Shown: positions 12,977 to 59,700 of the stretch, one piece after another
Numbering within the stretch: position 1 is the stretch's first letter
Layout: every line of letters starts with the position of its first letter
Source: Leucoraja ocellata
Taxonomy: Eukaryota
Reading direction: 5' to 3'
NCBI GenBank assembly: GCA_036785375.1
Contig: JAWMAR010000011.1
Span: 9,424,001 to 9,488,000, forward strand
DNA: 64,000 nt
Notes under the pieces: model-generated
Database searches by the model: none
Seen by the model: only the letters and a program-made list of their open reading frames with translations
Told to the model about the DNA's origin: nothing
Position numbers and translations under genes: made by a program

Positions 12977-15159
12977 TTACATTATGGTTTCATGAATATC
13001 TGTTAGACAATTAGTTCCCATGTCTAGACCATGTAATGTTGCTTTCTGGTCCAATGAAGTAACTTTGTTGAACATCTCTGGAGACAAGGAATATCTGTTT
13101 CCTGACTTCTCCTCAAACCAACAGTCCAGTGCCCTCTTTGCCTCAAAGTTTGCAATGGATGTTCCATTAACAGCAATAGTCAAAAGGTCACTGAGTTGGT
13201 CAAGGCTAAGTCGAGACCTGTTATTGTTACGTATCCGATAAAAGGCACCACGACTCTTCTCACAAGCTGCTGTTGAAGTCGGCAGAACAAGCAATAATTG
13301 AATGATTCTGTTTAGTATTGGGAATCTTTGTTTATACTTAAAGATGTGACAGCTCAACTCTTTGAAACCATTCTTGTTGTAGCATTCAGATTTTAACTCC
13401 CGCCATTCCTGCAATAAACTACCCCGAATGTCTCTGCCATCCAGACCAATTTCCTTTGTAAAAGATGGAATTATTTCAAAGTGCTTATATATGTGCATAA
13501 TTTCTTCTTCACCATGACTCATCAGGTTTTCCTCATTTTGGGGCCACGTCGTAATGTCAAACACTTGACATGCTCTAATAATGATACGGCTATTGCAATC
13601 CAGTCTTTGTGCTAGAATGAGTTGCGTTTTTTGGCAAATCTTCTCTCTTATTGAATTAAACTTGGCTTCTGCCACTCTTAGTTTTTGCAGAGGAACACCA
13701 TGAAAGTTTTCATGAAAGGTCTCCTCAAACTCTTGCAGATATTCTCCTGGTGATTCCACCAATCTACTTATCTCTTCAATGGCTTCTTCGATTTTTTCAT
13801 CCGCATGGGTAATGAGAAGGTGATCACCCTGGAAAATGAACGCCAACCGTGTAAGAACACCAATAATGTCTAACAAAAAATAGATAAGCTTAACTGACTG
13901 ATAGTCCATCAAGAATTGTAGCAGAGCCAGAGCAATGGCAGCAGCATCTGCTTTATGGGTCTGAGCACTAACATCCTTAAGATGAGCTATCACTTCCAAA
14001 TAATCCTTGATCAATGCACTCAAGATATTCTGCTCTCCAATGATCCACCTGACAGCACGAATGTCACCCAGGAATTCTGTCTCCTCGCAGAGTGTTGCAG
14101 CAGTGGCTCTTAATTCACACATGAGTTTGGGGGAATATCGATAGAAGCTCAGCAATTGTTTCAGGTTATTCTCTAGATCTTCCAAACAGGTTAGTTCTTT
14201 GCTACTAATAGCATCCAATACTTCCAAGTGAGGTCTATGTATCACACATGGGACAGAGAGTAGCCAAGGCAAAGCCTTTTTGATCTTCATGGCTAAACCT
14301 GCCCTTAGTCCTGTTGTCATATTGGCTCCATCGACCCCCAGACCAACAATTATTTTTTCTTCTTTCCATTTGATCCCTATGCCCCCAAGGGCCCTGTCCA
14401 GTGCCTGTGTATAACCGTCCACTGTTGCAGAGCTCAATTCCTGTAGGCACAATAACTCTGTAGCAGCTGGCCCCTCGTTGGTAACGTATTGAATGTAGAT
14501 GGCAACATTATCAGCAATCATGTCATCTGTTTGCCCATCCAAAATCACACTCATAAATGGGGACACCCTGAGCCTCTCAAGGAGATCCTCACGAAAAGAC
14601 ATTGCTATGTGGTGAATTAAAGTTTGACAGTCTCCCTCATTCAAGTATTGATCAACAATCTTTAAGTCACATTTTTTCAGAAGTTCAGCCAACGGTCTGA
14701 AATCTGAAAAATGCCTTCCTTCAAATGCTATGTGATAGGCTACATTAAATAACAGCGTCATGTTCCGGCACATCTCTTCTGTTTTTTCTGGATGCATCCT
14801 TAGTTTATAAAGTTGCAAACATTTCTTATGAAGATTACTCTGGGCGTGCAACTTGATAGTGTGGATTTTGAACTGCTTAGAGCCCAAGATGAAGGCTGAT
14901 GTCCTGGAGGACTGAACAGTGTACTGCCTACAAACATGGCACCACATTTCATTCAGAGTGGGTGAGTAGCGCAGGAACCAGAACTTTTTCAGCCACTCAT
15001 GTTTGAAGCGTCTGATCCTCCGGCCTGTACCAGTCGATATTTTCGATATTTCTTCTGTGGTGGCCAAAATCTCATTGGACATCGACTCGTCAGCTGAATC
15101 CATCTCCTGCTCACTTGTGTCATCCATGACAACTGGGACAGGAGTCTGTCCTTCTTGAG
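12977..15159 (-). CDS. PRDM11: PRDM11 terminal exon: TTF-type zinc finger + ZNF862-like domesticated hAT transposase domain
   Basis: Stop-free ORF. Acceptor TTCCTCACCCTAG|CT is phase 1, matching the 58891 donor. RRIRRFKHEWLKKFWFLRYSPTLNEMWCHVCRQY...HAQSNLHKKC and the downstream sequence are recognisable as the long PRDM11 isoform. hAT motifs LDGQTD, DGA, RW and TSTAACE are present. Confidence 0.95.
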
Positions 15160-28678: not shown

Positions 28679-28815
28679 CTATTTGGGAGCATCTTCAGGT
28701 TTGTCCCGGACTCCCAAAATGTAACGAATCTTTTTTCTGCTGTCACTGCATTTGCTGTTTACCATGGCATAAAATGCCTTGTCCGTCACGTATGCAAACT
28801 TCAGCTGGACATATG
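28679..28815 (-). CDS. BEN-domain exon 2 (C-terminal helices), putative terminal exon
   Basis: Strong acceptor TTCATTTTGTATTTTGCAG|CA (phase 1). Encodes AYVQLKFAYVTDKAFYAMVNSKCSDSRKKIRYILGVRDKPEDAPK*, including the BEN C-terminal N.KC...R(K/R) helix. AATAAA follows on the minus strand at 28443-28448. Confidence 0.8.
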
Positions 28816-29499
28816 CTGCAAAATACAAAATGAACAAACATTAGTTTGATGGATAATCTAAAATAGGATTAATTAAACAAGACACTTCAGTCTTAACATT
28901 GTATCGAGAGTGGATCCAGGCATCCCAAGAACTGGACTAAGTATGAACAAAGTTGTATTACATAATCTTCATATTTGATCTATCCAGGCATTATAGGGAA
29001 GCAAGGATGTCATAGATGGGGTTCAAATATATCCAAAGCTTCCACTGTACACTCACCACGATAACCTCCCAGAGTTTTTGGTTTGCAAAGTTAAAAAATA
29101 AAATATTAGTAAACCATTCAAACAATTCTGAAATAATACACGATTTCCTTGAAATTGGATTGAACCAACATTTATCATCTGAAACATCATTGTGTTGCAT
29201 ACTAGTGCCAAATTGGGTGCTCCTCAAAAAAACAAGTGTGTGATTATGTTAAATATGCAAAAAATGAGTTTCACAGTTCAACATAGCTCCTGACACTCAA
29301 CTGCACAGCAAATAGAGTAGGGCATGTTCTCTATGGCAGGAGAGCAATAACAAAGGCTGTACAGCTGAAACAGAGGAGAGGGAGGGGTAAAAGCTTTGTA
29401 CACGCCAGATCATGTCTTACTACCTTGATCGTTTTTTTGAGGAGATTATGAAGTTGATCGATGAGGGCAGGGCTATGGATGTTACCTACAAACATTTTT

Positions 29500-30138
29500 A
29501 GAAGGCATTGACAAAGTCCACTCCAAAACCAGCAACCCTATCCTAATGCACAGCACTGCTCTAGAGGAGGTAGCAACATTCACATACCTAGGCAGTGTTG
29601 TGGACATCACCGGAGGGGCAGAGGCAGACATAAAAAGTAGGATCAATAATGCTAGGGTGGAGTTTAACATGCTCAGGAAGATCTGGAGCTCAAAACACAT
29701 CTCAATCAACACCAAAATATGCATCTTTAACTCAAATGTGAAACAGGTGATGCTGTATGGATCAGAGACATGGAAAACAACAAAACACACTACAAACTGG
29801 CTGCAAACATTTATTAGCACCTGCCTTAGGAGAATACTCCACATCAGGGGAAAAGAACAAGTCAGGAGCCCATTGACTTACAAATTCGAAGGAGAAAATG
29901 GAGTTGGATTGGACACACCCCCAGAAACCTGCCACAAACATCACCCGGCAAGCCCTGAAATGGAACCCCCAAGGAAAAAGGAAAAGAGGTCGCTCCAGGA
30001 ACAGGTGATGAGGTGCCCAGACAGAAATGTCTGAGAGTGGACTCAACTGGGGAGATCTCGAAAGAACTGCCTACAACCAAGTGAGGTGGAGGACATTTGT
30101 CAATGGCTTATGCGCCCTAGAGGAGCAAAGGACTTATG
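29500..30138 (+). mobile_element. RTE-clade LINE 3' fragment inserted in a degraded CR1
   Basis: LEEVATFTYLGS...DIKSRINNAR..F..L.KIW...TKICIFNSNVK.V.LYGSETW; CR1 RT remnants on both flanks. Confidence 0.88.
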
Positions 30139-30899
30139 AAGATTTGACAAAGTCCCCCATGGTGCGCTGATCCAGAAGATTAAGATGCAAGGATTAATAG
30201 CGGCTTATTTGTATGGATTCAGAACTGATTTACCAATAAAAAACAGAGGATTGTGGTGACAGGTCAACATTCAGGCTGGAGGTCTGTCACCAGCAAAGAT
30301 CCAGTGGAGTTCTGCAGGGAACTGTTGTTTGTGATATACATATAAATGACTTGGATGTAAATGTAATGTAAATGGATAAATAATGTAAATGTAATCTAAA
30401 TGGGCTGGTAAGTAAATTTGCTGTAGGCAAAGCATCTCAGCATATTCTAATGATAATGTTTACAATTGAGTAGTGCAAAGGGAATGCAGGGATTACAAAA
30501 TGTTGTTTGTGGTATGTGCTGAATTTCATTAAGTCCCCATTCATGAGGTTGTTTGCATCTTGGTGGTCCCTATGCTTGCGAGGAGAATTGTTATCTGCAG
30601 CCTGGTGAGGCACTTCACTTGAGGGCTCATCTCCCCTTTTCCTATTTTCCTACCTTTTCTTCATTCCTTTAGCCTAACTGGAGATGAGAGACATTTTTAT
30701 TTGACTACATTTAACTGCTTCAACCCAGTGAAGGAGATAAAGAGAATAGATTGCCCTTGGTGCTGTGCGAGCGGAGGATGGTGTAGATGTGGAATAAATA
30801 AGAGATTGTGTGTGTGGGTGTCTGTGTGCGTACGCAGCAATGAATGCACGTATGTACACGTGTACGAATGTGTGTACGTATATACGCACATGACATGAA

Positions 30900-30903
<4 letters not shown>

Positions 30904-30941
<38 letters not shown>
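30904..30941. repeat. (GT)n microsatellite
   Basis: Pure GT run, preceded by a degenerate purine-pyrimidine tract from about 30807. Confidence 0.97.
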
Positions 30942-30947
<6 letters not shown>

Positions 30948-31304
30948 TTAATATTTTTAATAGTGTTCTGCTCACCTCTTCGTATCTTGCAAGGTCATGA
31001 AATAGCTTGACACATTTCACCTTTGAGCAGGGGTTGTTATTCCTGACAATGCAAATAACTTTCTGCAAGACTTTAAAGGACTTTAAACCTAATGTATTTC
31101 AGATATGAATACATTATCTGCTGTTTAACACAGAACAGTACAGCACAGGAACAAGCCCTTCAGTACTCAATGTTTGGGCCGAACAAGATGCCAAGATTAA
31201 CTCTTACCTGCCTACACATAATCCATATCTCTCAATTCCCTGCGTGTCCATCTGCCTATCTAAAAGTCTCTTAAATGCCACTATTATAACTGCCTCCTCG
31301 ACCA

Positions 31305-31655
31305 CGCCTGTTTCCAACGGGAACGGTGACGGACGCACCACACATCTCTGTCGTCCAGTTTCTGTGGACTTCAACCGCTGGAAGTATAGGATTTCGGTGT
31401 GTGTGCTTTGTCATCATTCCTTACAATGCTATATACGACAGTGATCACAACTTCTACTGAAGTGTGGACGGCCGTTGGCTCACTAGAAGCTCATTCGCCC
31501 TTTGGCAGGTCTTGTTTTTTGTCCTGCTGAGGGTCCACAGCCCCCTCCTCACCTGGCAAACCAGGTGGGGGAGACGGTTTTGTCGCCGACTATCCGACCA
31601 TGGAGCAGGCAGCACGGGATTACATAGTACCCGTGGCGGGGGTACCCCGACCTGA
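31305..31655 (-). mobile_element. GC/CpG-rich inserted repeat, possibly an RTE 5'-UTR-derived element
   Basis: Abrupt compositional block with several hairpins, adjoining a CR1-type tail (31125-31304). Family assignment is tentative. Confidence 0.4.
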
Positions 31656-32173
31656 AATGTACTGCAGTAAATAAAAGATAGGTGGCCTTAAGAGGCTGTG
31701 CAACCCAGGGTAATTAGAATTGTACAGGTCTTTGATCAGACCATTCATGTGTTGTTTGTGTCTCTTGAGGAAATATAAACTTCCTTTCATTGGAGATTTA
31801 CAATATTCCTGGCATGAAGCAGATTCCCAATGAGGAGAGTTTTAAGTTGGTTGGCCCTTTATTTGCAGAAGTTTATAATAATGAAAGGTGAATGAAAAGT
31901 GATTTCATTTAAACATACAAGTTGCTGACTGGGATTCACAGAGTAGATGCTGAAGGAGTGGTTCCTTTTCCTGGAGAGTTTAGAACATGGAGATGTAGAC
32001 AAGATTCAGAATAGAGATGTGGTAACATTTCTGCGTGGTTTGTAAATCATTACACTTCTCCACTCCATAGGCTGCAGTTACCTAGTCATTGTATATATTT
32101 ATGGTAGGATTCATATCTTTTTGGATACTACATGATTCAAGGAAATCATTATTGGTATATTATTTATTATTGT

Positions 32174-32492
32174 GGCACAGTGATGCAACTGGTAGAGCTG
32201 CTGCCTCACAGCGCCAGAGATCCGGGTTTGATCCTCAGGTGTTGTCTATCTGGAGTTTACACGTTCTCCCACTGACCACGTAGGTTTCCTCCGGATGCTC
32301 TAATTTCCTCCCACATCCCAAAGACGCGTGGGTTTGTACGTTGATTGGTATCTGAAAATTATCCCTAGTGTGTAGGGAGTGGATGTGAGAGTGGGATAAC
32401 ATAGAACTAATGTGAATGTGAAATCTATGGTCGTCATGGACTTGATGGGCTGAAGGGCCCGTTTTCCTGCTATATCTCTAAGCCTAAAACTA
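32174..32492 (+). mobile_element. V-SINE-type SINE
   Basis: Same head, core and tail as 3439-3714. Confidence 0.88.
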
Positions 32493-33894
32493 ATTGTCAC
32501 GTGTATGGAGGTGCAGTGAAAAGTTTTGTTTGTGTGCTAGCCATTCAAATAATATTATACATCAATCAATCAAACCATACACAAATAAACGGGTAGTACA
32601 AATAGAAAAAAAGACCAGTGTGCAATATAGTGCTATCAAATTATAGTGTTACAATTACACAAAAAGTGCAGATAAAATAAGTGCAAGGTCGGCACTGAGA
32701 TAGGTTGGAAGATTGGGACGACACCCTATCTTATGGAAGGACCATTCAGTAGTTTGATAACAAGTTGGGCTGAGGATCAAACTATTATCAGATGGAATTG
32801 ATATGGAACAACAGTCTTGACAGACCACATTGTTCTATTTCATATGTTTTAAAATCCTGCTCCAATTAATTGGACCTTTTTTGTAAAATCCAAGTCACAG
32901 AATCATCAATCCAAATCCTTTCACTAAATTAAAATCAATAACTTGCGGGAAAGTTCTTGAATTCAACTGAATCACTTGAATTCTTGACTCACTTGTCAAT
33001 TATGTTCAATTGTCATTTGATTAAAAAAAAAAAAATTGTACTTCAAACTACTCAAAACTGAGGGCACGTATATTTAAACTATATCAATAACATTTTGCGA
33101 GCCTGGAATGAGAATTGCACACATAATATTTATGAAGATACTGAAATCCTACTGTTAAAATTTTCATCCATTGTTACTTTTCTTACTCTTACTGAGGGTA
33201 AATACAATTTTCCACTTCCTGTGGCATGTATTATTATATTATGGTGACACACAATGGCATTATTTAAAGTAGAAGTAGTCAGAAAATGCTGTTGGGGCAG
33301 GTAAGAATCTTGGAATCTCTGGGACTGAGGTCCTGCTCTAAGGTTTCACTGCAGGACTTCGTCATTTTCTTATTCCATTATTTACAATCCCTGCCATAAC
33401 ATGCAGTAGGAGACCAGAGACAGTAACTGGGAAAGATTATGGCTTCATAGGTGGAGTTGAAGTCTATCAATCAGAAAGGCATGTTCCGTTGATCATGAAG
33501 AAAGGCAGCAGTATAAATCAGGTTCTCAAATGACTGTAATCCTCCTGCTGCTGTAAAAATGGTGGTCAGTGCATATGTTGCTTTTTGGAGATGTATTCTG
33601 AAACTTATCCCATTCATTATGGGCATAATGGTCTACATTGAAAGGCCAGAAATATAATACCAGTACCAAATGTTGAACTAACACCAAGCCATTTTAACGT
33701 ATTAAATTTTATTTTTAAATGGATGGGCAAAGATCAGCAGATGTGCTTTCTAGAAATACCTTTTCAATTTTTGGGACCAAATATTAGACCGCTAAATACA
33801 CTGAAAATGTCTCTTAGCTGCTTCATTTATTCCTTGTGGCTTCAATATACAAATGACCATGATTAAAATTTGAAGTGAATGAGGTGTAGTGTAC

Positions 33895-34117
33895 CTTTGA
33901 TTGCATCCAGAACATCAGGATCAAGAGCTGGTCTGGACATGTTGAACCCACTGTTTTTCCCTTTGCCTCGAGCACAATGTGAAGCCAGGTGTTGCTCAGT
34001 GTAAAAGTATTCCAGCAGAGCTCTTGTAAGTTTGCTTGGGTCACTCCTCTCAGCAGGACTGATGAAATTTAAATTAAGGCAACTGACTGATATCCCAGGG
34101 CCAGACTGTGCACCTTC
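33895..34117 (-). CDS. BEN-domain exon 1 (N-terminal two-thirds of the domain)
   Basis: Acceptor TTGTATTACAAG|GAA (phase 0; a nearby CAG|TCT is an in-frame alternative) and donor AAAG|GTACAC (phase 1). Encodes DPSKLTRALLEYFYTEQHLASHCARGKGKNSGFNMSRPALDPDVLDAIK, the typical BEN pattern (R..LL..FF..E.L.S...G...LDP..L.AI). Confidence 0.8.
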
Positions 34118-34639
34118 CTTGTAATACAAGCAATAAGAAAAATTATAGTATTTAAAAGCCAAAGCATATACTTATTCACAGAATTCTGAGTAATAGAGAG
34201 ATGCAATCTAATACAATTGCCCACCATCAACCACCCATTTACCCCGATCCTATAATAATCCCATGTTATGTTATAGCAATTAGAAAGTTTGAGCATTTTT
34301 ACCTCTATATGGAATCCCTTAATTATTTTGCCTACTATTTAAATCTAACTATTTGCGATCTGCTTTACACAGGTTTTTAAGTCCTTGTCCTCTTTCCTCC
34401 TTGAGCCACACCTTCCAAAAAAAGTATCATACAAAATATATGGTCCCATAGGCACCATGCATCCATCTCCTTCTTGGTACCTTGCTTAAAAGAACATTAT
34501 TCACATATGGCCCAAGAGGGCATGTTATACCAGGTTCTTCAATTAGCAGAACCTTTCTCTGCTTCCATCAACTTGCTTCAGCAATAAATGCCCAACAAAA
34601 TCATTAGTGTCCACTTGTGGTAATATACTGGGAGGTACA

Positions 34640-34913
34640 CAGTGTCCTCCATAATGTTTGGGACAAAGACCCATCATTTATTTATTTCCCTCTGACCACC
34701 ACAATTTGAGATTTGTAATAGAAAAACTTCTTTGGTGCTTTAAAAGTATGTTTGGGAGCATTGTCTTGTTGTAGAATAAAAATGTATAAAAATGTCCTTT
34801 AATAAAATCTGGCAATGTGCACTTTAACCACATGTGATCTTTTTCTATTGCACATCTCAAATTGTGGTGTACAGAGACAAATAATAAATTATGGGTCTTT
34901 GTCCCAAACATTA
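34640..34913. mobile_element. Internally deleted derivative of the Tc1 family at 61106-62766
   Basis: CAGTGTCCTCCATAATGTTTGGGACAAAGACCCATC...ATGGGTCTTTGTCCCAAACATTA; the right TIR tip is missing. Confidence 0.85.
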
Positions 34914-35324
34914 GAAACGTTCTAATTTGGCTCTTTTTTCTATTCTTCACAAGCTTATGCCTTTGACATAGTGTTGCCATTCTTTCTTGCAACCATGGCA
35001 ATCCATGTGGCAATTTTAGCAGCAAATCCGGTGTCCCAGCTGAAAATCATCTACTAAAGTCCCAAAACTGAAACTTATTAGTTAACATGCCTTGGTAGAA
35101 TATTAACGGTACAATCATTTTGTAATAGTTATTTCCTCTGCAGACAATGCGACATTCATTTGAATTTAATATGGCTTGATATTTTAAAGTGAAAGCTTTT
35201 AAAATACTTTCCAATAATGTTCAAGAGACCCAGATCTACTATATCTAAGGTATTTAAATCATAGAATCAACAAGTACAAAAGACATCCAATTCCATCATA
35301 AAGTTGTCTGTTCTTTTGGAGAGA

Positions 35325-36450
35325 TAGAATCACGTAGCACCAAAATAATTCCTTTGACTCAACTCATCCATGCAGACCAAGATGTCCCATCTAAGCTAGT
35401 CCCATTTGCCAGAGCCTGACCCATATTACTCTAAACCTTTCCTATCCATGCACCTGTCCAAATGTTTTTTTAATCTGTTCAGTGCCACCCCCCGAGTATA
35501 CTCGGGTCATGGCCAATAGTGAAAAAAAAACTTGGCAGTAAACAGGTTCAATGTTGTTATTGTACCTGGCTCAGCTACTTCTCCTAATAATTCGTTCCAT
35601 ATATCAACTACCCTCTGTGTGGAAAAGTTGAACCTCAGGTCCCTATTAAATCCTTCCCATCTCATCTTAAATCTATCTTCTCTAGTGCTTGTTTCGACCT
35701 ACTATTATCCACATGACTTTATACACCTCTATAAGATCATGCTGCTGCCTAATACTTCAAGGAATAAAGTCCTAACCTGCCGAACCCCTTCTTATAACTC
35801 ATGCCCTTGAGTCCTGGCATCATGCTCGTAAATCTGCTCTGTACTCTTTCCAGATTAAAGGCACCTTTCTTAAATCAAGGCGACCAAAATTGATCATAAT
35901 ACTCCAAGAGCAGACTCACCAAAATCTTGTATAACTGTGAAATAATGTCCCAACTTCTACCCTCAATTCCGTGACTGATGAAGGCCAGCCTGCGAAAAGA
36001 CTTCTTCACCACCCTATCTGCCTGCAACATCACTTTCAGGGAACTTTACACTTGCTCTCACAGATACCTCTGCCTCTACAACACTCCCAAAGCTCTCTCG
36101 TTCACTGTGAATGCCCTGCCATGATTGGACTTCCCAAAATACAACAACTCACACTGATCTAAATTAACCATTCCTAGTCCAAGCTGATCAAGATTCCTTT
36201 GTAAATATTGATAACCATTTTCAGTCTACGCTCCAACCTCGTTTAGTGCCATCTGCAAATTTACATTTTCATCTAACGATAGATGACAAAGAGCAATGGG
36301 CCCAGCACTGATCCCCGAGGCACACCACTAGTTAAAGGTCTCGATTATGAAAAATAACTTTCCACCACCACTCTCTTTATTTCTTTATCCAATCATTAAG
36401 CAAATTCTGTATCCAGTTAGCTAGCTCTCCCTGGATCTCAAGCGATCTGA
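35325..36450 (-). mobile_element. Older degraded CR1-type LINE
   Basis: Minus-strand RT remnants (VPRGSVLGP, KFADG, EYY.QFWSP) and a 3' tail near 35325. Confidence 0.75.
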
Positions 36451-38703
36451 CATTGAGGTTAAGGAGCCATTAGGAGGTAATGACCATAATATGGTCAAGT
36501 TTAATCTACAATTGGAGAGGAAGAAGGGTAAATCAGAGATGTCAGTGTTACCGTTGAATAAAGGGGACTATGGAGACATCAGGGAGGAGCTGGCCAAAGT
36601 TGACTGGAAAGATACCCTAGGAGGGATGACAGTGGAACTACAATGGCAGGTATTTCTGGGAATAATACAGAAGGTGCAGGGTCAGTTCATTCCGAAGAGG
36701 AAGAAAGATTCCAAGGGGAGTAAGGGGCGACCGTGAATGATAAGGGACGTCAGGGACAGTATAAAAATAAAAGAAAAGGAGTACAAGGTAGCAAAGATGA
36801 GAGGGAAGCAAGAGGATTGGGTAATGTTTAAAGAACAACAGAAAATAACTAAAAGGGCAATACGGGGAGAAAAGATGAGGTACGAAGGTAAGCTAGCCAA
36901 GAATATAAAGCAGGATAGTAGCTTCTTTAGGTATGTAAAGAGGAAAAAATTAGTTAAGACCAAAGTTGGACTCTTGAAGACTGAAAAAGGTGAATTTATT
37001 ATGTGGAACACGGAAATGGTAGATGAGTTGAACAGGTACATTGGATCCGTCTTCACTAAGGAGGACACAAACAATCTATACTAGTGGCCAGAGGATCTGG
37101 GGTGACGGAGGAACTGAAGGAAATCCACATTAGGCAGGAAATGGTGTTGGGTAGACTGATGGGACTGAAGGCTGAAAAATCCCCAGGGCCTGATGGTCTG
37201 CATCCCAGGGTACTTAAGGAAGTGGCTCTAGAAATCGTGAATGCATTGGTGATAATTTTCCAATGTTCTATAGATTCAGGATCAGTTCCTGCGGATTGGA
37301 GGGTAGCTAATATTATCCCACTTTTTAAGAAAGGAGAGAGAGAGAAAACAGGGATTTATAGACGAGTTAGCCTGACATCGGCGGTGGGGAAGATGCTGGA
37401 GTCAATTATAAAAGATGAAATAGTGGCACATTTGGATAGCAGTAACAGGATCGGTCCGAGTCAGCATGGATTTACAAAGGGGAAATCATGCTTGACTAAT
37501 CTTCTGGAATTTTTTGAGGGTGTAACTAGGAACATGGACAACGGAGAGCCAGTGGATGTAGTGTATCTGGACTTTCAGAAAGCATTTGATAAGGTCCCAC
37601 ATAGGAGATTAGTGGGCAAAATTAGGGCACATGGTATTGGGGATAGAGTACTGACATGGATAGAAAATTGGTTGGCAGACAGGAAACAAAGAGTAGGGAT
37701 TAACGGGTTCAGAATGGCAGGCAGTGGCTAGTGGGGTGCCGCAAGGCTCGGTGCTGGGACTGCAGCTATTTACAATATACATCAATGATTTAGATGAAGG
37801 GATTCAAAGCAACTAGTAAATTTGCAGATGACACAAACCTGGGTGGCAGTTTGAACTGTGAGGAGGATGCTATGAGAATGCAGGGTGACTTCGACAGGTT
37901 GGGTGAGTGGGCAGATGCAGTTTAATGTGGATAAATGTGAGGTTATCCACTTTGGTAGCAAAAACAGGAAGGCAGATTACTATCTAAATGGTGTCAAGTT
38001 GGGAAAAGGGGAAGTACAACGGGATCTGGGGGTCCCTGTTCATCAGTCAATGAAAGTAAGCATGCAGGTACTGTAGGCAGTGAAGAAAGCGAATGGCATG
38101 TTGGCCTTTATAACAAGAGGTGTTGAGTAAAGGAGCAAAGAGGTCCTTCTGCAGTTGTACAGGGTGCTAGTGAGATCACACCTGGAGTATTGTGTGCAGT
38201 TTTGGTCCCCTAATTTGAGGAAGGACATTCTTGCTATTGAGGGAGTGTAGTGTAGATTTACAAGGTTCATTCCTGGGATGGCAGGACTGTCATATGCTGC
38301 GAGAATGGAGCGGCTGGGCTTGTATACTCTGGAGTTTAGAAGGATGAGACATATAAGATTATTAAGGGTTTGACATGCTAGAGGCAGGAAACATGATCCC
38401 GTTGTTGGGGGAGTCCAAAACCAGGGGCCACAGTTTAAGAATGAGGGGTAAGCCATTTAGAACGGAGACAAGGAAACACATTTTCTCACAGAGAGTTGTG
38501 AGTCTATGGAATTCTCTGCCTCAGAGAGCGGTGGAGGCGGGTTCTCTGGATACTTTCAAGAGAGAGCTAGATAGGGCTCTTAAAGATAGCGGAGTCAGGG
38601 ATATGGGGAGAAGGCAGGAACTGGGTACTGATTGGGGATGATTGGGAATGGCGGTGTTGGCTCGAAGGGCCAAATGGCCTACTGCTGCATCTATTGTCTA
38701 TTG
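36451..38703 (+). mobile_element. 5'-truncated CR1 LINE, ORF2 broken by stops and frameshifts
   Basis: KSPGPDGLHPRVLKE, QHGFTKGKSCLTNLLEFF, VDVVYLDFQKAFDKVPH, KFADD; 3' tail CTATTGTCTATTG. Confidence 0.97.
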
Positions 38704-39321
38704 CAAAACAGTCTACTATGCAGAGGTTTATAGAAGTCCATGTCCTGCACTCATCAGCATAAGCAATTTCTCCCAATCATGAAATTATCTCACAAATAAA
38801 TAAGCAATTCCTTTTTTAAAGTTATGATTAAATTTACTCCACTATTTTCTTATAATCTTAATAAGTTGCAGAGCAAAATATTTTTCGTCGTCACCATTCC
38901 TAAGCCCACATTGACAGTGGTCCATTTGCAAATCACATTACATTTACATCTCTGGTTACCATTCCTACAGTCGATAGAAACACTTTTTCCATCTGAGCTC
39001 TGAAAACGCCTCCAATTTTAACACCTCTAATAAATTTCCTGTTCCCTTTTGCTGTTCGGAGGAAATAAATTATAGCTTCTAACACCTCTCTGCATAACCA
39101 AAGTCATTCAAGTGGCCTTGATGTCTCTCACCAATTCACATGCATGCAAATACTGATTTTTCTTGGAAGACAATTTTATCTTTTGGGTTCACATGGTAAT
39201 CACATATATGCCTCCTTGAAATCTTTCAAGTTGGTAAGCAGCAATTTTCATTTGATTCAGCCTCATTCAAGTATAACTAGCCAATGTAAAGAATCTTTTT
39301 GTATCAAATGATGGTTCTTAC

Positions 39322-40691
39322 CGATGGCTGATTTTGCCGCATACGTTTACGAGCAGCTACTGCTTTCAGATTACGACAAATATCTTTGAAAGTTGAAGGC
39401 TGCAACCTGTGTTGGAGATGTGGTGGGTCCTGCATTGAAGGGCATTGGTACTGTGGAAGCTGATGCTGTGGTTGTGATGGTGGCGGTGGTGCTGGTAGTG
39501 GCAATGGCTGTAGATTTTCTTGCTGCCATAAAAATGTCTTCTGGTTAGGTTGTGGTTGCTGGGATTGTGGCAATTGCTGTGGGGATGACTGCAGATTTTG
39601 TGATGATTGGTGAGGTGATTGTTGCTGGAGATGTGGTAACTGCTCTGCCGGCTGCTGCTGGAGATGTGGTAACTGTGGTGCCGGCTGCTGCTGGCGATGT
39701 GGTAACTGCTGTACCGGCTGCTGCTGGAGATGTGGTAACTGTTGCACCGGCTGTTGCTGGAGATGTGGTAACTGTGGTGCCGGCTGCTGCTGGCGATGTG
39801 GTAACTGCTGTACCGGCTGCTGCTGGAGATGTGGTAACTGTTGCACCGGCTGTTGCTGGAGATGTGGTAACTGTGGTGCCGGCTGCTGCTGGCGATGTGG
39901 TAACTGCTGTGGTGGCTGTTGCTGCAGATGTGGTAACTGTTCCACCGGCTGCTGCTGGAGATGTGGTAACTGCTGTGCCGGCTGCTGCTGGAGATGTGGT
40001 AACTGCTGTGCCGGCTGCTGCTGGAGATGTGGTAACTGCTGTGGTGGCTGTTGCTGCAGATGTGGTAACTGTTCCACCGGCTGCTGCTGGAGATGTGGTA
40101 ACTGCTGTGGTGACTGTTGCTGCAGATGTAGCAACTTTTGTGCCGGCTGCTGCTGGAGATGTGGTAACTGTTGTGCCGGCTGCTGCTGGAGATGTGGTAA
40201 CTGCTGTGGTGACTGTTTATGGAGATGCGGTAATTGGTTTAGATCTAATGGATGATGTTCAACCACTAAATGTTGCTGGCACTGACTGTTATTTTGTGGC
40301 ACCTCAAGGAATTGTTCTTTGAGTTTTATCTGCTGATATTGGTGTTTTGATTGCTCAGGGTAAAATTGTTCATCCACAATTTCATCACATTGTTCAACCT
40401 TAAGTTCTTGCTCAGAACACTTTTGTTGTGTCAGTTTAGGTTCTGGGCCCTGCTCAGTCACTGCTGGTTGTTGTTCTTCTGCATGTTGGGTTTCAAAAGG
40501 TTGTGGAAGGTGTAGCAGTGTTGGTGGATGATGAGGGTAGTAGTGTTGAACCTTATCCTTCACAGGTTGTTGTTTTTGGTCTGGTAGCACAGGTATCAAA
40601 GTGCTTATTTCTTCTGCTTCTGATTGCAAGAGGTGGAATCTGTAGTACTGGACAAGATTTTCCAGAAAGGCAAATGTAGCCATAGAAGGAA
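39322..40691 (-). CDS. Putative alternative PRDM11 exon, Gln/Pro/His-rich with an 11-aa tandem repeat
   Basis: Branch-like GCTAAC, T9 tract and AAG|TT CCT TCT ATG acceptor (phase 1). 1370 bp open. Donor TCG|GTAAGA (phase 0). Non-repeat coding-like flanks on both sides, including basic AARKRMR. Confidence 0.75.
39613..40239 (-). repeat. Coding minisatellite, 19 x 33 bp (QQLPHLQQQP[A/V/P])
   Basis: 19 in-frame units counted from the translation; plus-strand unit is approximately GGAGATGTGGTAACTGCTGTGCCGGCTGCTGCT. Confidence 0.97.
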
Positions 40692-42066
40692 CTTAAAAAA
40701 AAACATAGGTTAGCTGCATCTAATTCAATGAACAATTGTTTAAAAACTGCTGTCAAACTACAAGAAACAAAGCTTTTTAACAGTACATTGGTAACTTTTG
40801 TAAAGGTTACATTATTTATTAGAAAGTGTATTTCTGTAGTCAATTGCACAAGGTAGACAGTATCTTTTGTTGGAACACATAGGCTGTATTTACAAAGAAA
40901 AATCTTTCATTATAAAGATAAGGAACGAAAGCATGTAGACTTATTTTATTCATTTTTCAGGGACCAAATGCATTTTCTACCTTCCCAAAGCGTATGTCTT
41001 AAGTAAGGCAAAACATCTTTATTCAATGTGCATTTCAAGGCCATCTTTCTTGTGCACAATTCTTTCTAATTATATGGGAATGGCCCAGACTAATACTATG
41101 TTTCTACTTTGAATCTACTGGCAGTACTAAGTACTTCTATCAGGCTCTTTTAATTTCCAAATATTAAAAAATAATCATGATACTAAATTTATCAACCTCT
41201 TAATCGGGTAATGAAATGCAAAAAGTGGTCTAATGTATGGATTACTTACTGTGATCCACCTAAAGCAACACAAACAATTAACTAATTGTAAAACCAAATA
41301 TCTTATTCTCAAAATTAAGTATTATTTACATGTTTTCCAGCAAGATACGATTCAGGCTTCAGCAAGAAGTAACACATGGTGGACAAAAGAAAGGCTTCAA
41401 ATCTGTGGCAAAAAAGGGTCAGCACTTTATTGCTGTTTGAAAACTTGACATTACTGAATGCATCATGATAAACTGATTTCACTTTAGAGGTTTAATAAAA
41501 ATAAAATAATTCCCATTTACACACACAGAAATATAATCCCTAAATAATATTATTCTTATAATCTGCATTCAGCTATCAATAGAAAACAATCAATGTGCAT
41601 GCAATCAAACCTCATAATGCCCAGATATATACAGAATCAGAAGGTAATAAAGAGAATTCCTGCATGAGATCTGGTAGGACTTTCTCACAGACAAAATATT
41701 ATATTAGCTACATGGGGAATTGCATTCTATTCAGACTGTCACCTTTACAAATCAGGTTCTCTCAATATTATGAATCCTGAAAGTATGTTTAGTTAGGCCT
41801 GTCACAAATCAGATGTAATTGTACAAGAATACGTTTATTCTTTCTGCACTGTTCAAACATTTGAATTGAAATGATCAAATCTCAGAAAATTTCCTTGTGG
41901 CAATGGAAGCTGAATTTTAGATTATACATTAGCGTGGAAGAGCTACTTATTTATCCACATACAATATTTTGAAGTACGTTGAAGATCCTCATTATATTTC
42001 AGAATTGGAGAAAGATACAAGAATGTGGTTCCCTCCATCCCCCTAAAAATAATCTTATGAAAATGG

Positions 42067-42367
42067 GGGCAGTACAGTGGTGCAGCGGTAGAGTTGCCTT
42101 ACAGCACCACAGACCTGGGTTTGATCCTGACTACGGATGCTGCCTGTACGGGGTTTGTATGTTTCCCCGGTGACTGCATGGGTTTTCTCCGGGTGCTCCG
42201 GTTTCCTCCCACACTCCAAAGACGTACAGGTTGGTAGGTTAGCTGACTTCAGTAAAAATTGTAAATTGTCCCTAGTGTGTAGAATAGTGCTAGTGTATGG
42301 GGGTCGCTGGTCGGCACTGACTCGGTGAGCCGAAGGACCAGCTTCCATGCTGTATCTCTAAACTAAA
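42067..42367 (+). mobile_element. V-SINE-type SINE
   Basis: tRNA head, GGGTTTTCTCCGGGTGCTCCGGTTTCCTCCCACA core, CTCTAAACTAAA tail. Confidence 0.9.
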
Positions 42368-43832
42368 ATGGCATATTTATATTTATAATTATAAAATCTC
42401 TGCAATAAAAGCCCCTTCTCACTTTTATGAAGGACAATCACTCCAAACTTTAGAACACATCTGAGGAGACAATGGAAAAAAACCTCAAACATTGTTGCTG
42501 ACAGCTGTACACATCAGAATGTGTCAGAATTAGGAAGTGTTGCAGCAGCATGAGAAATATGACATGTTCCCAAATCTTGGCTTTGGATAACATTGGTGAT
42601 AATTTGAACTCAATGTCCAGAGCTATGGTTATGGGCACTGGGAGATGCTGGGGAGAGGTTGAGGACAAATGTGAATCTCGGGATAATATATTGTAGTTAC
42701 TTTGTAGACTGAAAAGTTTACAAAAATGTTGTAAATTTGCTGCACTATATTTTCTGTGCCCTGCATTAGCTCAGTACAACTCAATATGATTCACATGTTC
42801 AGAATATTTGTGCCTGAATTTTAGAGATTCTCCATTTTCATATTTAAGCAACCTATTTCCAGCAAACATCCATGTCGACCAATGGTCACCCACATTAATT
42901 TAATGCCAGATATGCTCCTGTTGTAGGTCACAAAATAAAATGTCCAAATTTCCTCAGTATTGTAGTAATTTTACACCTGTAAGGAGAATATACCTGCCCT
43001 CCCCTCACCCTCCTCTCCCACCATCCCTCCACATGCTCCAACCCAAAGAATCTTATTTAAGGCAATAAAAGTAGTAGCTGAAAGGGACTTTTTCTCATTG
43101 ATTGCTAATGTTCTAATTGGTTTCTCTGAACTAATTGCTATGGTATTAACATATTTGGAAGGGAAGCTGCCTTCTTTTGTCATTACATGGATAACTGACT
43201 AATGCACATTCGACTGGGCTTGCTTTGCTGATCCATTGTTTTTCTATGTCAACCCATATCATCTCAATTTGTCCCTTAAAAAAATCCTGTTATTATGGCT
43301 TGCTGGATTTAATAGGGATATATGTAACGACTAATTAATGAAAGTACAGCACAAAGTACCCCCATAATCAAGCTGCCAACATCAAATTATTTCAATGACA
43401 GTGAATCTTACAAAGAATGTCAGAGCATTTCCTATTCTACCACCTCAATAGTTAGACGCAAACCTCAATTACATGTAGAAAAATAAGCTGTGTTTACCAC
43501 TGAGGAAGGAGAAATTCCAAGAAAATCCATCCCCTGCAAGTCTGCGCTTATTGTGAAGAACATGATAGATTGTGGTGTGCAAGTAAAGAGTTTGACCAGT
43601 CAATTCAGTTTATTCTGTAAATTACAATTAATTCACTTAATTGTGAATTCCACACAATTTGTCCCTAGATTCAAATATTGTATTGTTATTGATACCTCAG
43701 AGATTGATTTCTTTGGCATAAATCATTACTTCAACAGCTAATTCAGGTAAGGTACTATTATACCTACAACATTTTCTCAACTATGATCTGAATTCATCTG
43801 TATCGTAGGAAAATACTTTCTCCAATTGCTCA

Positions 43833-44200
43833 GTCATAGAGTTATACAGCACGGAAACAAGCCTTTCATCTCAACGTCCAGGCAGACTGCGATGCCCCTT
43901 CAAGCTAGTTTTATTTCCTTACATCTGGCCCTTTAGCCTTCTAGCCCTTTCCTAACCATACATCTGTCCAAATTTATTTTAAATATTGTTAATTTACCTG
44001 GCTCAACTACTTCCTCTGGTGCTCATTCCATATACCAACCACTCTCTGTGTGAAAAGGTTGCTCCTCAAGTTCCTATTACATCTGTCTCCTCTAACTTTA
44101 AATCTATGCCTTCTATTTTTCAACTCATACCCTGATAAAAACACACTGCATTCATCCTATCTATTCCCCTCACGATTTTATACTTCATTAAGGTCACTCC
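43833..44200 (-). mobile_element. CR1-type LINE 3' fragment
   Basis: AGTCATAGAGTTATACAGCACGGAAACA tail and ACCACTCTCTGTGTGAAAA motif. Confidence 0.75.
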
Positions 44201-46062
44201 ACATCCTTGATTCTTGATTGGATTGCAGTGAAATACTTTGCTCATGTTTTGAGTGAGTCTTTTGGACCAAGATTTATGGTAAAATATCTTTAAAAACAGA
44301 AACTGTGGGTATTAAATCAATTATGATGTGATCAATCGAAATTGACTTAACGACTAAGAATCAAAGTGAAGATAACCTTCATGATATAAGAGGCATCACA
44401 AAACCATAAAGAACTTGCTTAAACATACAACAGAATTATTCACTGCTAAGTATTAACTTTATTTTGGTATTAAACAAGTTATAGAAAAGACAAGAGGAAC
44501 CAGGGTGCAAACAAGGAAAAACAAGATGTTCTTTACAGCACAAGATACACAAGATTATCCTGCACACAATTTGTATTAATTTAGAAATTCTACCTTATAC
44601 TTTTATTGGATATTAATTGGATTAGATATAAAACTAGCCTTGAAATGTTCTTAAAGCTACAAGGCAAGGCAAGGGGGTAGTTGAAAGGGCATGCACAACA
44701 GTGGTGTGCTCATCAATAAAAAAATATTGCAGTAATATTTAAATAATATTACTGCCAGTCCAAATCTCATTATTGCCTGTTCAAATCTCACCATAAGAAC
44801 TGGGGAATTAAATTTTGGTCAATTGAATAATCTGGAATCAAAAAGCTGGTATGAGTAGTGTTTGCCTTGCGACTATAGGTTTCTACGGAGTCTCTGAGCA
44901 TGGCATTTTATTTTATCCCGCCAGCGACCACAGTGCTTGCTCTCTTCTATAGGACAAATTGTATTATGAACTCATCAGAGAGAGAGATTGCAAGTATAAA
45001 CTCATGTCTTAGCAAACACATCAAGGTTATGACATTGTGAAGTATAATTTGCCTTTGTCTTAAAGAGGTAAACAACATATTTTGATTGTGACTGTTCCAT
45101 TTTCTGTTCCCATCACTTCTCCCCACTTCCAGGACCAGAATAGGATTTCTTTATCTTCACCTTTCACCAACTGGCCTTCACATCCAATGGATCGTTATTC
45201 TCAAACTGCAATACCACTAGTCGCATTATCCCACCTCCTTTTCAAGCCTCAAGCTGTCTTCCCATGTGAAACAGCAATTTACCTGCACTTCCTTAAAGCT
45301 AGTATACTGTTTTGGCTGTTTACAATGTGTTGCCAGAAATTCTGTTAATTTTTTTAATGATATTAAAGAGTTTTGTGGGTCATTGTGAACATTGCACACA
45401 GATTCAAAGCTTTTTGGAACAGCATTGTTTGGTTCCCCTTTGTAATGCGTGATGAAAGTGACAGTGATATTCTCCAATATTCTCTTTTGATCCAGTACAA
45501 GCATTAGGCCTCATGGGTGCAATCTCTGCAGCTGACTCTTAAAGGAACATTACACAATACATAATCTGTGAGCCAGATCCTGGAACTCATTGCCGATTAG
45601 CACTGTGAGAACACCTCCATCACATGAACTCCAATAATTCAAGACGATGGGTCACTACCATTTTCTAAATGGTAATTACGAATAGGTAATAAATGCTGAC
45701 CTTGCCAAAGATGCATAGATCCTGAAAATAGATTTTAAAAAGTTATGGCAATAAATAGATGGACTTCACAAAGAATTGAAGGGAGAGGTAATGGGGCAAG
45801 GCATAATGCAAGAGTGTTCCCAAGCAGTTGGAGAAACTAGAGTGGGCAGATAAAGACCATCTGTACACCATCCAGAACTACCGAATTATGCCTTTGCAGA
45901 TGTTTGCCAGGAAGGACACAACTGAAGTCTTTGGATGCTTGTAACCTATGGATGTCTGTGGTATGCGCATTTGTATTTGCCAGCCCTGTCTGTTCTTGTG
46001 TGGATGAAAGGAAAAGTAAATGAAGTTTTTTGTGATTTATTTTAAAATCACAGGTCTCATAA

Positions 46063-46727
46063 AGGGGCTGTCCCACTACGGCGACCTAATCCGCGAGTTC
46101 CAAAGAGTTTGCCCTCGACTCAAACTCGCACCATGGTCGACATGTGGTCCTATGAGGTCACTGGAACTCTCCTTCGTGCTCGAGGGAAGTTCCCTCATAC
46201 TCGCGGCCTCAGCGAGGTCGCGGAGATTTTTTTCAGCATGTTGAAACATTTTCCGCGAGTAAAATTTGGTCGGCATTGTTCTTTTTAACTAGTAGTGCAG
46301 TGGAGTGGGGTCGCTATTTAGTTACAGGCAGTCGAGGGCAGCCGTAGACAATCTCCTTCGCTGACCAGGCATTTTGATTGGCTCATTGGAGTTTTCTGGG
46401 CCAAGGAAAACCGACTGATAGGCTAAATGTCCCCCTCCCCCCCCCCCCCCCCGGGCTCTCTAAAGGACTTACCGATACAGTGCCAGACGTCTTTTACCTT
46501 CCTCTTCATCGCGGGTGTGAATTTCAGACAGCATTCCCGCGCTTTCCCTGGCCCACACCTTTGCGGTCTGTCTGTCTGTCTGTCTGTCTGTGTGTTCGGT
46601 CCAGCTCGCAGTTTCAACGCGGACGGTCCATCCAGCTCGAGGTTTTCCAGGCAAGTGCCCTCGAGCTTGAAGGTCGAAAACACTCTTCTTCACTCGCGGA
46701 TTAGGTCGCCGCAGTGGGACAGCCCCT
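46063..46727. mobile_element. PIF/Harbinger-like MITE related to 25984-26482
   Basis: TIRs AGGGGCTGTCCCACT.CGGCGACCTAATCCGCGAGT / ACTCGCGGATTAGGTCGCCGCAGTGGGACAGCCCCT; TAA TSD. Confidence 0.85.
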
Positions 46728-47002
46728 TAAGTAATGCAGTTTGAATGCTAAAACTATAAAGAGTGTAGTTTCAGGGGAAACCGTTGTTCTGAGAATAAAT
46801 ACAATGATTAATTTTTGCATTACTGTTGATAAAATTTGAGGGTACTTTATGCCCTAAAAAAGGGTTCCAGAGCAAAAGAAAATCTTACCCAAAGTCAGAA
46901 GTCAGAATTCTCAACCAGGGCCAGATACATGGGAAATTGAGGCAATACTGTTATCTGAATTTTTCAAGTGTACAATACTAGTATATTTGGAGTTGTATTA
47001 AC

Positions 47003-47535
47003 TTTATGCTGGGGAGGCCAAATGCAGGCGAGCTGCTCTGACCACTTTGCAGAATACCTCCAAGTATGTAATCACGACCCCGAGCTTTTTGTCACCACTC
47101 GCTTCAAAGCTCTTATTCCGACTACTCTGCCTTGAATCTCCTGAGCTGTTCAAACAAAATTCAACCCAAGCACAGGAACGGTAGCTTATCACTTCACTAG
47201 ACATGAAAGACATTTTTACACTCAACATTGAACCAATAATTTGAAGGAAGTAGCATTGCTGCAATTTTATTTGATATACAGCATTCATTTGAAATTCCTT
47301 TTACATTTTAAGATTATCATTTTGCGCTTTCACTTCTTCAATGCTTTGTTATCTAGCGCGAACACTCTTGCTGTCATTCCATTCGGTCTGAGACTGCTTT
47401 TTGTTCTCTCCTCCCCCATTTCTCTGCACCTCAAAATACATTTCTAGCTATTTCCACTTGATTAAAGCTTGCTGCCCTGAAATATTACCTCTGCATCTTT
47501 CTCTCCAATGACTATGCCTGATTTGCTGCATGTTT
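47003..47535 (+). mobile_element. Degraded Penelope GIY-YIG/pLTR fragment
   Basis: Decayed YAGEAKCR...DHFAEYL...DPEL...LNIE pattern parallels 78-404. Confidence 0.6.
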
Positions 47536-48309
47536 GTTTTTTATTAGCGTAAGTATAATTGATGAAAGGAAAGTAGAAGAGTCAAGGGAACAAAAAAATT
47601 ATTCCAAAGGTGCTTCTGAAATTCATTGCCCGAAAGGAATGTAGATGAAGATACAATAACCATATTTTTTACAATACTTGCATGTGTACTTGTAATGTCA
47701 CTACCTAAAAGAATACAAATTAGATTGGAAAGTTAGCATAGCCTTTTAGGTGCTCTTCTTATTCACTTCAGGTACAATGTTCAATTACTTTTAAATATAT
47801 TGTATATATTTGTGATTTTGCAATGCACTTTAAATATTCTTGAAATTCCATGGTGTTATTATTAAGTAATGGAACATAAAAAAATGTTTATGGTTTGAAA
47901 TTGTATGCTTAGTAGGTCTTTAAATCATGAATATTGAAGTCGATTTCAGTGCTAATATATTATAGAGTTGCTACTGCTCACAAAGCTTTAAAATACACAA
48001 AAATAAGAAAGGTTGCTTGACTCATGACGAGCTATCAAATGAAGAAACTACACTTGCACCTCAAATTTGCCATTTCCTGTACCTAAGCATACACTTAGAT
48101 TGGACAGAAGTTAAAGTTATTTCAATCTTATCATCGTCGAACATAACAGTTCACAATAACCAGCCCTTCGGCCCAAATCTCAGTGCCAAACATAATGCAA
48201 AGATAAACTAATCTCCTCTGTCTGCACTTGGTCCATATCCCTTCATATTATGTTTCTCTCCTGTGATTAATAAAGTTCTATCCTATGTTATCGTATATCC
48301 ATGTGCCTA

Positions 48310-48900: not shown

Positions 48901-48907
48901 TACTATG

Positions 48908-51054: not shown

Positions 51055-51313
51055 ATCATATAACCATATAACAATTACAGCACAGAAACAGGCCATCTCG
51101 GCCCTACAAGTCCGTGCCGAACAACTTTTTTTTTCCCTTAGTCCCACCTGCCTGCACTCATACCATAACCCTCCATTCCCTTCTCATCCATATGCCTATC
51201 CAATTTATTTTTAAATGATACCAACGAACCTGCCTCCACCACTTCCACTGGAAGCTCATTCCACACCGCTACCACTCTCTGAGTAAAGAAGTTCCCCCTC
51301 ATGTTACCCCTAA
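51055..51313 (-). mobile_element. CR1-type LINE 3' end
   Basis: RGNFFTQRVVAVWNELP..VVEAGS...FK..LDRHM. Confidence 0.9.
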
Positions 51314-58890: not shown

Positions 58891-59700
58891 CTGGCAAGTT
58901 AGACTTCAGTCGATCTAGTTCCTCTTGAAGCTGTCGAATTTTCTCTTGTAGTATTACACAATTTGGACAGTACGATGTGGGCTGGCTTTTTGGAAGATCT
59001 TCCTCAGCCACAGCCCTGTGCTGTCCACCTGAATTCTCTGGTGGCAAAGCACTGCTGTTTTCTTCAGTATTTTGAAGGAACCCAGAGTCCATTGTTTGGA
59101 GAAAACCAGTATTTAAATGCTTTTCATTTACTTTTTGTTGGGATCTGAAGTCTCCTTCACCTCTGGTGCCTGATTGAGATAGAATACTTTGCTGTGAAGA
59201 AGTTCCTGGCCTGTTGAATGTGTCTCCTTCGTGATGCCTGAGCCTTTGCCGAACAGGAAATTGATTGTCCATTGATGATGGATATTTTGTTTGTGCTGTA
59301 CTCAATTTATTGATTTCATGTTCCTGTCCACTGCGGGCTACAAACTGAGACCTTTGAGGTACAGGAGATGAGGTAGTTAGAAGATTGCTAGTTTGCTTCA
59401 TAGAACATACATGTTCAAATGGACCCCGACCAGAAATTGGACAACCAAGCTTTTCTCTTGGACTATCAACTGGCAAATCATGGATGCTTTTAAACAATTG
59501 TTCCAGCTTCTTCTTTTTAGGGCTTGGGCTGCAGTCGCCATCTTTGTTGTCACGTTTTCCACCCTTGTTGGGATTGGTATTTTCCAGTCTCTCAAAATCA
59601 TCCTTATTTAGAATCCCTGGTATTCTGGAGGTCCCTGGATCTCCAGTGGGTTTTTCAGTGGAATGTCTTCCTAGGCTAGCCTTCTTGCACTTTGCTGCCG
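58891..59700 (-). CDS. PRDM11: PRDM11 internal coding exon (post-PR-domain region with NLS-like PKKKK and CxxC + coiled coil)
   Basis: Acceptor CATTTCAG|CG at 59701/59700 and donor CCAG|GTAAGT at 58891/58890. The exon is 810 bp, open and phase 1-1. It encodes SPSPKKKKLE and PTSYCPNCVILQEKIRQLQEELDRLKS, matching the recalled vertebrate PRDM11 motif TSFCPNC...VRELQAELDMLKS. Confidence 0.9.

Follow-up and report, generated by a model that had tools for sequence, protein, structure and literature searches.

The window analysed here is a 64-kb stretch of the Leucoraja ocellata genome (contig JAWMAR010000011.1 of GCA_036785375.1), corresponding to G000:C11:9424001-9488000 of the 3.44-Gb assembly used for the genome searches. 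It holds the minus-strand 3' part of PRDM11; five more coding exons, among them those for zinc knuckle and PR domain, precede the window on this strand. In the last intron of this gene a cassette of three exons encodes a BEN domain. The three serve as alternative last exons in place of the usual one, which is derived from a hAT transposase. Sharks and rays have a real, strongly conserved PR/SET-BEN version of PRDM11 that automatic annotation already includes. A preliminary description of this DNA had called the cassette hidden. The cassette itself was confirmed, but RefSeq-type models already contain the BEN form. The following features are needed below:

58891..59700, minus strand: shared PRDM11 exon; encodes a long linker and, at its end, a CxxC motif and a predicted coiled-coil helix; its phase-1 donor serves both endings
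39322..40691, minus strand: cassette exon 1, 1370 nt, phase 1 to 0; conserved N-terminal helix, Q/P/H-rich region and basic helix
40615..40689, minus strand: conserved amphipathic helix directly after the coil, a helix only in a low-confidence model
39623..40233, minus strand: 33-bp tandem array coding for an 11-residue Q/P/L/H repeat (TRF: 18.5 copies, 84% matches)
39337..39390, minus strand: conserved basic helix before the donor, position derived from tblastn
33895..34117, minus strand: BEN exon A, 223 nt, phase 0 to 1; codes for the first half of BEN, in which the minor-groove loop lies
28679..28815, minus strand: coding part of BEN exon B, 137 nt, phase 1 to stop; second half of the domain with the recognition helix
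28443..28448, minus strand: candidate polyadenylation signal, the first AATAAA after the BEN stop; further AATAAA at 28231 and 27334
12977..15159, minus strand: usual PRDM11 last exon, encoding a zinc finger of C17orf113 type and a hAT dimerisation region; its acceptor is of phase 1

Exon structure of the two PRDM11 endings

The splice path proposed in the preliminary description, from 58891 to 40691-39322, 34117-33895 and 28815-28679, was exact in every coordinate. On the minus strand the donor GTAAGT follows 58891 and an AG acceptor precedes 40691. The donor GTAAGA after 39322 is paired with an AG before 34117, the donor GTACAC after 33895 with an AG before 28815, and the TAG stop ends at 28679. 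All junctions are GT-AG and the phases are compatible. Joining 59400-58891 and the three cassette exons by script gave 746 codons, with the final codon as sole stop; the remaining two frames contained 24 and 34 stops.

The acceptor at 15159 is also of phase 1 and thus competes with 40691 for the donor at 58891. We propose that this donor is spliced either to 15159, giving the zinc finger and hAT ending common to other jawed vertebrates, or to 40691, so that the two endings would be mutually exclusive. The usual last exon matched Pfam PF25431 (E 5.1e-9) and PF05699 (E 6.9e-6). It is transposase-derived and conserved from chimaera to mammals; 54 weaker hAT-like matches were detected elsewhere in the genome. 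The earlier statement that PRDM11 lacks C2H2 fingers was borne out, as the gene has this zinc finger and hAT-derived last exon and no C2H2 array. PRDM11 was described as the sole vertebrate PRDM without zinc fingers (PMC4760075), and is reported to have arisen from PRDM9 before the split of cartilaginous and bony fish (PMC5519329). The knuckle and PR domain are of PRDM11 type: in protein P0007 they scored 321.7 bits against the structure of the human PRDM11 PR domain (3RAY, E 1e-94), which shares both elements, and 150-152 bits against PRDM9. In the poison-frog PRDM11 models (proteins P0049-P0053) the N-terminal segment of zinc knuckle and PR domain is repeated.

The BEN form would consist of zinc knuckle and PR/SET domain, linker, CxxC-coil, helix, Q-rich repeat, basic helix and BEN domain, with about 950-1120 residues. 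The order of domains described before, PR/SET, coiled coil, polyQ and BEN, is retained. The term polyQ does not fit, since the region is the tandem array of 33 bp or 11 residues and not a glutamine run. Its unit number was 19 in the window and 15 in a second genomic copy, and its length differs among species. It might act as a flexible low-complexity spacer or as an activation region. The edges 58891 and 59701 of the linker exon are visible in contigs of the sequencing runs X3 and X4. The proteins of the window are skate-like: of five relatives compared, Rhinoraja longicauda had the highest identity both in this exon and in the 5' portion of the first cassette exon. The CxxC-coil also occurs in PRDM11 of chimaera, frog, bird and mammal. 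The amphipathic helix behind it was found in 12 of 137 stored proteins, all of them elasmobranch BEN forms. The full-length AlphaFold model (pLDDT 30.7) was used for helix positions only, and the homodimer prediction for coil and helix had a score of 0.02. For the basic helix at the end of the exon, a role as nuclear localisation or DNA-backbone element is possible.

Transcripts, domain identity and conservation

Reads from four of the 24 listed runs were compared with 40245-59800. The other two junctions, 39322^34117 and 33895^28815, lie outside that stretch; database models and frame logic argue for them. Contig 1 of run X3, from a related animal (2538 nt, depth 40.6), corresponds with letters 75-518 to 40245-40691 and with letters 519-1329 to 58891-59701, with nothing between. 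The junction 58891^40691, which had been proposed for a check in reads, is therefore present in this one contig. At the upstream edge of the coil exon the contig departs from the genomic stretch. Intron pieces of the same run reached a depth of 4-8, compared with 40.6 for the contig. A processed copy in the genome of the X3 animal would look alike, yet would itself need the splice. Run X5 gave only short pieces on this stretch, and for 40240-40691 no source recorded as RNA was listed.

The search with BEN exon A had 58 candidates and yielded 12 proteins, 91-95% identical. Each of these belongs to a shark or ray and carries PR, SET and BEN. Cluster look-ups added 15 members: nine with PR and BEN, five with cassette exon 1 and no BEN, and one BEN-only fragment model. 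The three junctions are kept in 21 database proteins of 19 shark and ray species, with PR and BEN in a single chain; one of these proteins lacks the coil exon, its PR exon being spliced directly to the cassette. BEN exon B is 93-100% identical to shark and ray proteins. The elasmobranch prdm11 models XP_078271211.1 (Rhinoraja longicauda, isoform X4), XP_059831429.1 (Hypanus sabinus) and XP_041052708.1 (Carcharodon carcharias) have the same exons, junctions and domains and differ in no structural respect; they are unstudied automatic predictions. Most of the database entries are named 'uncharacterized prdm11 isoform', others 'heat shock protein DDB_G0288861' or 'PAX-interacting protein 1', and several of these names are wrong. 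In the BEN-less side forms either the hAT acceptor is used out of frame or BEN exon A is read out of frame. The presence of such minor forms suggests that reads underlie the models. In bamboo-shark models BEN exon A (34117-34075) is read out of frame with an early stop, which fits an acceptor a few bases inside the exon. These forms and those with the hAT acceptor may be noise or an off switch of the BEN form.

No description of a PR/SET-BEN form of PRDM11 was found in full-text literature searches, whose reach excludes most subscription journals. The accessible part of PMC4760075 does not contain 'BEN' as a whole word, and PRDM11 does not occur in the available main text of bioRxiv 10.1101/2020.05.07.082677. 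A full-text search for PRDM11 together with ZNF862 also found no paper.

The BEN domain is split between the last two exons. The exon part 34117-33896 alone matched positions 1-45 of the 76 of Pfam BEN (PF10523) with E 2.4e-5 and 24.9 bits (cut-off 23.2), and 28813-28682 alone gave no Pfam BEN match. In all five spliced relatives scanned the match extended over positions 1-72 with 31.4-35.5 bits. Thus, the claim that joining both exons rebuilds a BEN domain was confirmed by a Pfam match above the cut-off and by the fold. The AlphaFold model of the last 119 residues of a stingray orthologue (exon A 95% identical) had a pLDDT of 78.2 and a long helix at 86-114. Foldseek placed BEND6, Bsg25A and Insv on top (E 4e-4 to 1e-3). 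In the structural comparison Insv (4IX7) was matched with Z 13.1 and an rmsd of 2.4 over 103 residues, Bsg25A with Z 12.5 and BEND6 with Z 12.4. The best matches to Insensitive, Bsg25A, BEND6, NACC1, BANP and BEND3 ranged from Z 13.1 to 9.1, and the best unrelated chain reached Z 4.8. The top 12 structural matches were all BEN domains, nine of them titled as DNA complexes. The splicing and the identity of the domain are established or nearly so. In the ESM Atlas only unnamed BEN clusters were detected (best 0.91). None of six candidates for short or fragmentary relatives of the BEN region (65-209 residues) was significant at E 0.01. In the metagenome scan one of 596 pattern matches passed, a 29-residue match beside stops that was judged to be chance.

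Identities between four rays and seven sharks were calculated as means, that for the hAT exon from one skate-shark pair. The BEN core was 97.8% identical, the CxxC-coil 94.7%, the basic helix (residues 863-890 of P0001) 92.0%, knuckle and PR domain 90.5%, the cassette helix 85.4%, the linker 77.0% and the Q-rich part 66-69%. BEN is the best-conserved part of the protein, above the PR region. The hAT exon was 90.6% identical in the skate-shark pair, 81.6% between skate and chimaera and 70.8% between skate and bird.

The species range was examined with the best 120 of 693 matches to the PR domain. Among the matches listed were 30 elasmobranch rows, 12 of them with BEN, and 90 rows from other animals, none with BEN (four chimaera, five frog and 81 bird, crocodilian, monotreme or marsupial rows). 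PRDM11 of chimaera and tetrapods shares the CxxC-coil and the zinc finger and hAT last exon. PRDM11 of ray-finned fish, coelacanth or lungfish was not among the matches listed. For the skate Amblyraja only hAT forms appeared in these lists. A HMMER scan of the BEN region against 1.84 billion representatives gave 18 proteins: two elasmobranch forms, followed by a mussel protein (44%), other invertebrate BEN proteins and a vertebrate family with coiled coil and BEN (33-37%). A chimaera orthologue of the BEN ending is expected to be far closer than 33-44%; it could be unannotated or inside a 50% cluster. Hence, the absence of this ending outside elasmobranchs holds for annotated proteins only.

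Origin, function and alternative readings

The known BEN proteins nearest in structure are the BEN-solo proteins Insensitive, Bsg25A/Elba1 and BEND6, the BTB-BEN proteins NACC1/2, and BANP. They share the fold (Z 11-13), the recognition-helix residues and a single C-terminal BEN domain with PRDM11. They are 19-26% identical in structural alignments, and PRDM11 BEN is an orthologue of none of them. Attachment to a PR/SET domain is not reported for these proteins in the accessible parts of the literature examined. High identity to one of the named genes BEND3, BEND6, NACC1 and BANP was not found, the comparison being made without BEND2, 4, 5 and 7. PRDM11 BEN scored 23.6 bits against BEND6 as best solved relative, compared with 124.5 bits for the BEND3-like copies of this genome against BEND3. 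These copies form a cluster at G000:C72:7373554-8501900 (L003-L032) of about ten open frames, each a single exon of 686-769 codons that contains several BEN repeats and matches BEND3 (E 7e-36). The cluster represents an expansion of the BEND3 family, part of it mirrored in inverted orientation.

The closest vertebrate BEN domains (33-37%) belong to the family with coiled coil mentioned above (Xenopus XB5788060, Latimeria LOC102361767, turtle, stork, caecilian, axolotl, Heptranchias). Its coil is followed by a short helix and BEN, like in the PRDM11 form, but it is a separate clade and has no PR domain. Homology of coil and helix between the two was not supported (hhalign probability 4.6%). One query, used in a first look of stricter setting, detected no member in this genome. 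The family is well conserved (P0016-P0020, P0022, P0025, P0026, P0028) in shark, coelacanth, amphibians, turtles and bird; no mammal is among the members listed.

Most likely, the cassette goes back to a cellular BEN gene with introns, from which exons were duplicated into the last intron of PRDM11 before the divergence of sharks and rays. Another BEN gene of this genome, on contig C315 (L047:4696-4920), has an intron after the same three-residue motif and in the same phase as PRDM11 BEN. Its BEN exon has NACC1 as nearest solved relative (E 9e-7); we take this gene to resemble BEND4. Two invertebrate relatives end or lose the Pfam match at the shared intron point. An intron position common to another cellular BEN gene favours exon shuffling over transposon capture. 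Nevertheless, the BEN exons could also derive from a mobile element or DNA virus and have been captured by splicing, like the hAT exon. We regard this as unlikely, though with a real chance, because the nearest relative outside elasmobranchs, the mussel protein (44%, E 5.4e-16), carries a psq-type helix-turn-helix and ranks ahead of the vertebrate BEN domains. Furthermore, capture by alternative splicing is reported to be common in tetrapods (bioRxiv 10.1101/2020.05.07.082677), and viral BEN proteins exist. On the other side, the intron splitting the domain is shared with a cellular gene, no dispersed family of exon A occurs in the genome (old families can be extinct), and the viral matches were weak (best E 0.023, 17-20% identity). 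The mussel branch was unresolved in a tree of 21 BEN rows, which carried a long-branch warning and was built without BEND3-like, human BEND and NACC rows. The third view, which we hold to be rather unlikely, takes BEN as the original DNA-binding module of PRDM11. Coil and BEN would have replaced the zinc-finger array at the split from PRDM9 in early jawed vertebrates, and bony vertebrates would have lost the BEN exons and kept the coil. It is retained because absence in chimaera and bony vertebrates was examined in annotated proteins only. If true, sharks and rays would keep an ancestral chromatin writer that combines SET and BEN and has a fixed motif; splicing could switch it, possibly in the germ line, to the ending derived from a transposase.

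The BEN ending probably turns PRDM11 into a sequence-specific gene regulator. In solved BEN domains the last helix lies in the major groove and a long loop in the minor groove (PMC10206803, PMC4281564). By analogy, PRDM11 BEN may bind a short fixed DNA motif in this way. DNA binding is likely, judged from family membership and partly kept contact residues. With residue numbers mapped from spacing, the phmmer alignment to Bsg25A shows the recognition-helix Asp and Lys named in PMC4281564 (D349, K352) to be kept, and the lysines matching K259 and K265 of BEND6 (PMC10206803) are kept as well. The 119-residue C-terminus is net basic, with 18 K+R and 13 D+E. The splice between exons A and B separates loop and recognition helix; thus, both exons are needed. 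BEN would take the place of the zinc-finger array lost in comparison with PRDM9 and bring the PR domain and cofactors to fixed genomic sites. PRDM11 was reported at transcription start sites (review PMC13203297).

A SET-type domain directed by a DNA-binding module at the C-terminus, and new last exons acquired via alternative splicing, are features in common with PRDM9 and the host-transposase fusion genes SETMAR and KRABINER. In contrast to these, PRDM11 has BEN as its module, which is intron-bearing and, far from evolving fast, nearly invariant. Both families thereby gain a PR/SET-BEN architecture, and one gene carries two separately acquired endings. The candidate DNA-binding domain of the shark and ray gene is of a class other than zinc fingers and better conserved than the PR domain; it offers a direct way to ask what a DNA-aimed PRDM11 does. 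No principle is overturned, as it is already known that exon shuffling can attach DNA-binding domains to chromatin domains.

Taken as a whole, a PR/SET-BEN isoform of shark and ray PRDM11, produced by splicing and acting as sequence-specific regulator, is the best explanation and in our view quite probable. Several observations count against it. The junction 58891^40691 was detected in only one of the four runs compared, and the library type of X3 is not on record; the run is flagged 'RNA? (probably DNA)'. X22, the sole run recorded as RNA (about 6% read), had zero depth on both exons. In run X4 the cassette contig extends 300 nt into the intron (to 40991) and is not joined to 58891, and the coil exon lies with exact edges on a separate contig of 8746 nt. 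Five database isoforms use cassette exon 1 yet end without BEN. The 21-row tree resolves no donor of the BEN exons. In the domain itself, the loop residues and two helix residues (N261/N262 of BEND6) differ, so no motif can be borrowed from Bsg25A or BEND6; BEN of BEND6 also serves as a protein-binding surface (PMC4281564). Finally, methyltransferase activity of the PR domain appears doubtful. Of the catalytic tyrosines of PRDM9 (PMC5519329), mapped by spacing, Y276 and Y357 are present, and Phe stands in place of Y341, which is also the case in human PRDM11. Thus, the BEN isoform may be a scaffold and no enzyme, even though loss of one catalytic residue is no proof of lost activity (PMC5519329).

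The isoform could be real and translated with BEN mainly serving as a protein-binding surface, for example for corepressor contact, with no DNA motif of its own. BEND6 binds CSL through BEN (PMC4281564) and CGCG DNA only weakly (about 33-39 uM, PMC10206803), and near-invariance of the whole domain fits several binding faces. The kept base-contacting Asp and Lys, the basic C-terminus and the predominance of DNA complexes among the best structural matches argue the other way, and we consider this reading improbable. A nested BEN-solo gene with intronic promoter, starting at a Met four codons into the exon at 40691, with the PRDM11 fusion as minor by-product, was judged very improbable. BEN-solo genes exist (PMC4281564), the in-frame ATG just after the acceptor is found in the window and in rays, and the unjoined X4 contig would agree with such a gene. 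This extension, however, fits unspliced RNA, neighbouring intron pieces being present too, and the start Met is Val or Leu in seven of eight aligned shark proteins. The 2 kb upstream of 40691 have 31-45% GC and do not belong to the intron windows richest in CpG. The acceptor matches the donor in phase and is used in X3 and in the 21 database proteins, in one of them directly from the PR exon; with PR and BEN in one chain, a nested gene, raised as an alternative in the preliminary description, is not needed. That chance splice-like sites and annotation noise produced the whole pattern has a negligible probability. The database models are automatic, and GT and AG are common, but the join completes a split Pfam domain exactly, rays and sharks are 97.8% identical in it, and the exact junction occurs in a contig, which refutes an artefact.

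Genomic copies and repeats

In the genome, BEN exon A was matched over its full length at two places, and a single duplicated PRDM11 block contains both. Hence, the multi-copy repeat considered earlier was not observed. The second copy is located about 374 kb from the window:

G000:C11:9062415-9121970 (L037-L040, L043): second PRDM11 copy, 97-99% identical, both endings intact

It covers the gene from the hAT exon up to the last two PR exons; coding exons one to three appear to be absent within 20 kb beyond. Compared with the window, the BEN exons showed no difference in 360 nt, and the hAT exon nine synonymous and no non-synonymous changes. An unmerged haplotype is the preferred reading because further loci examined likewise occur as near-identical pairs; the alternative would be a recent partial duplication.

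Copies of about 450 nt of BEN exon B with 3' UTR (untranslated region), 95% identical, are dispersed at L033:4401-4854 (G000:C248) and L034:4849-5298 (G000:C762). They start at the acceptor, end in a short interspersed repeat and are 98% alike; one has a stop codon. Possibly they are a retroposed 3' end. The idea of retrocopies keeping a splice junction was rejected: the upstream letters match nothing in the gene, and a target-site duplication of more than 5 nt was not seen. As they start at the acceptor with unrelated DNA upstream, they are uninformative on splicing. By eye, open frames resembling fragments of retrotransposon proteins were noted in the window at 1-404, 1458-1838, 29465-30034, 37060-37731 and 48499-49038, and a further repeat lies at about 61118-62787.

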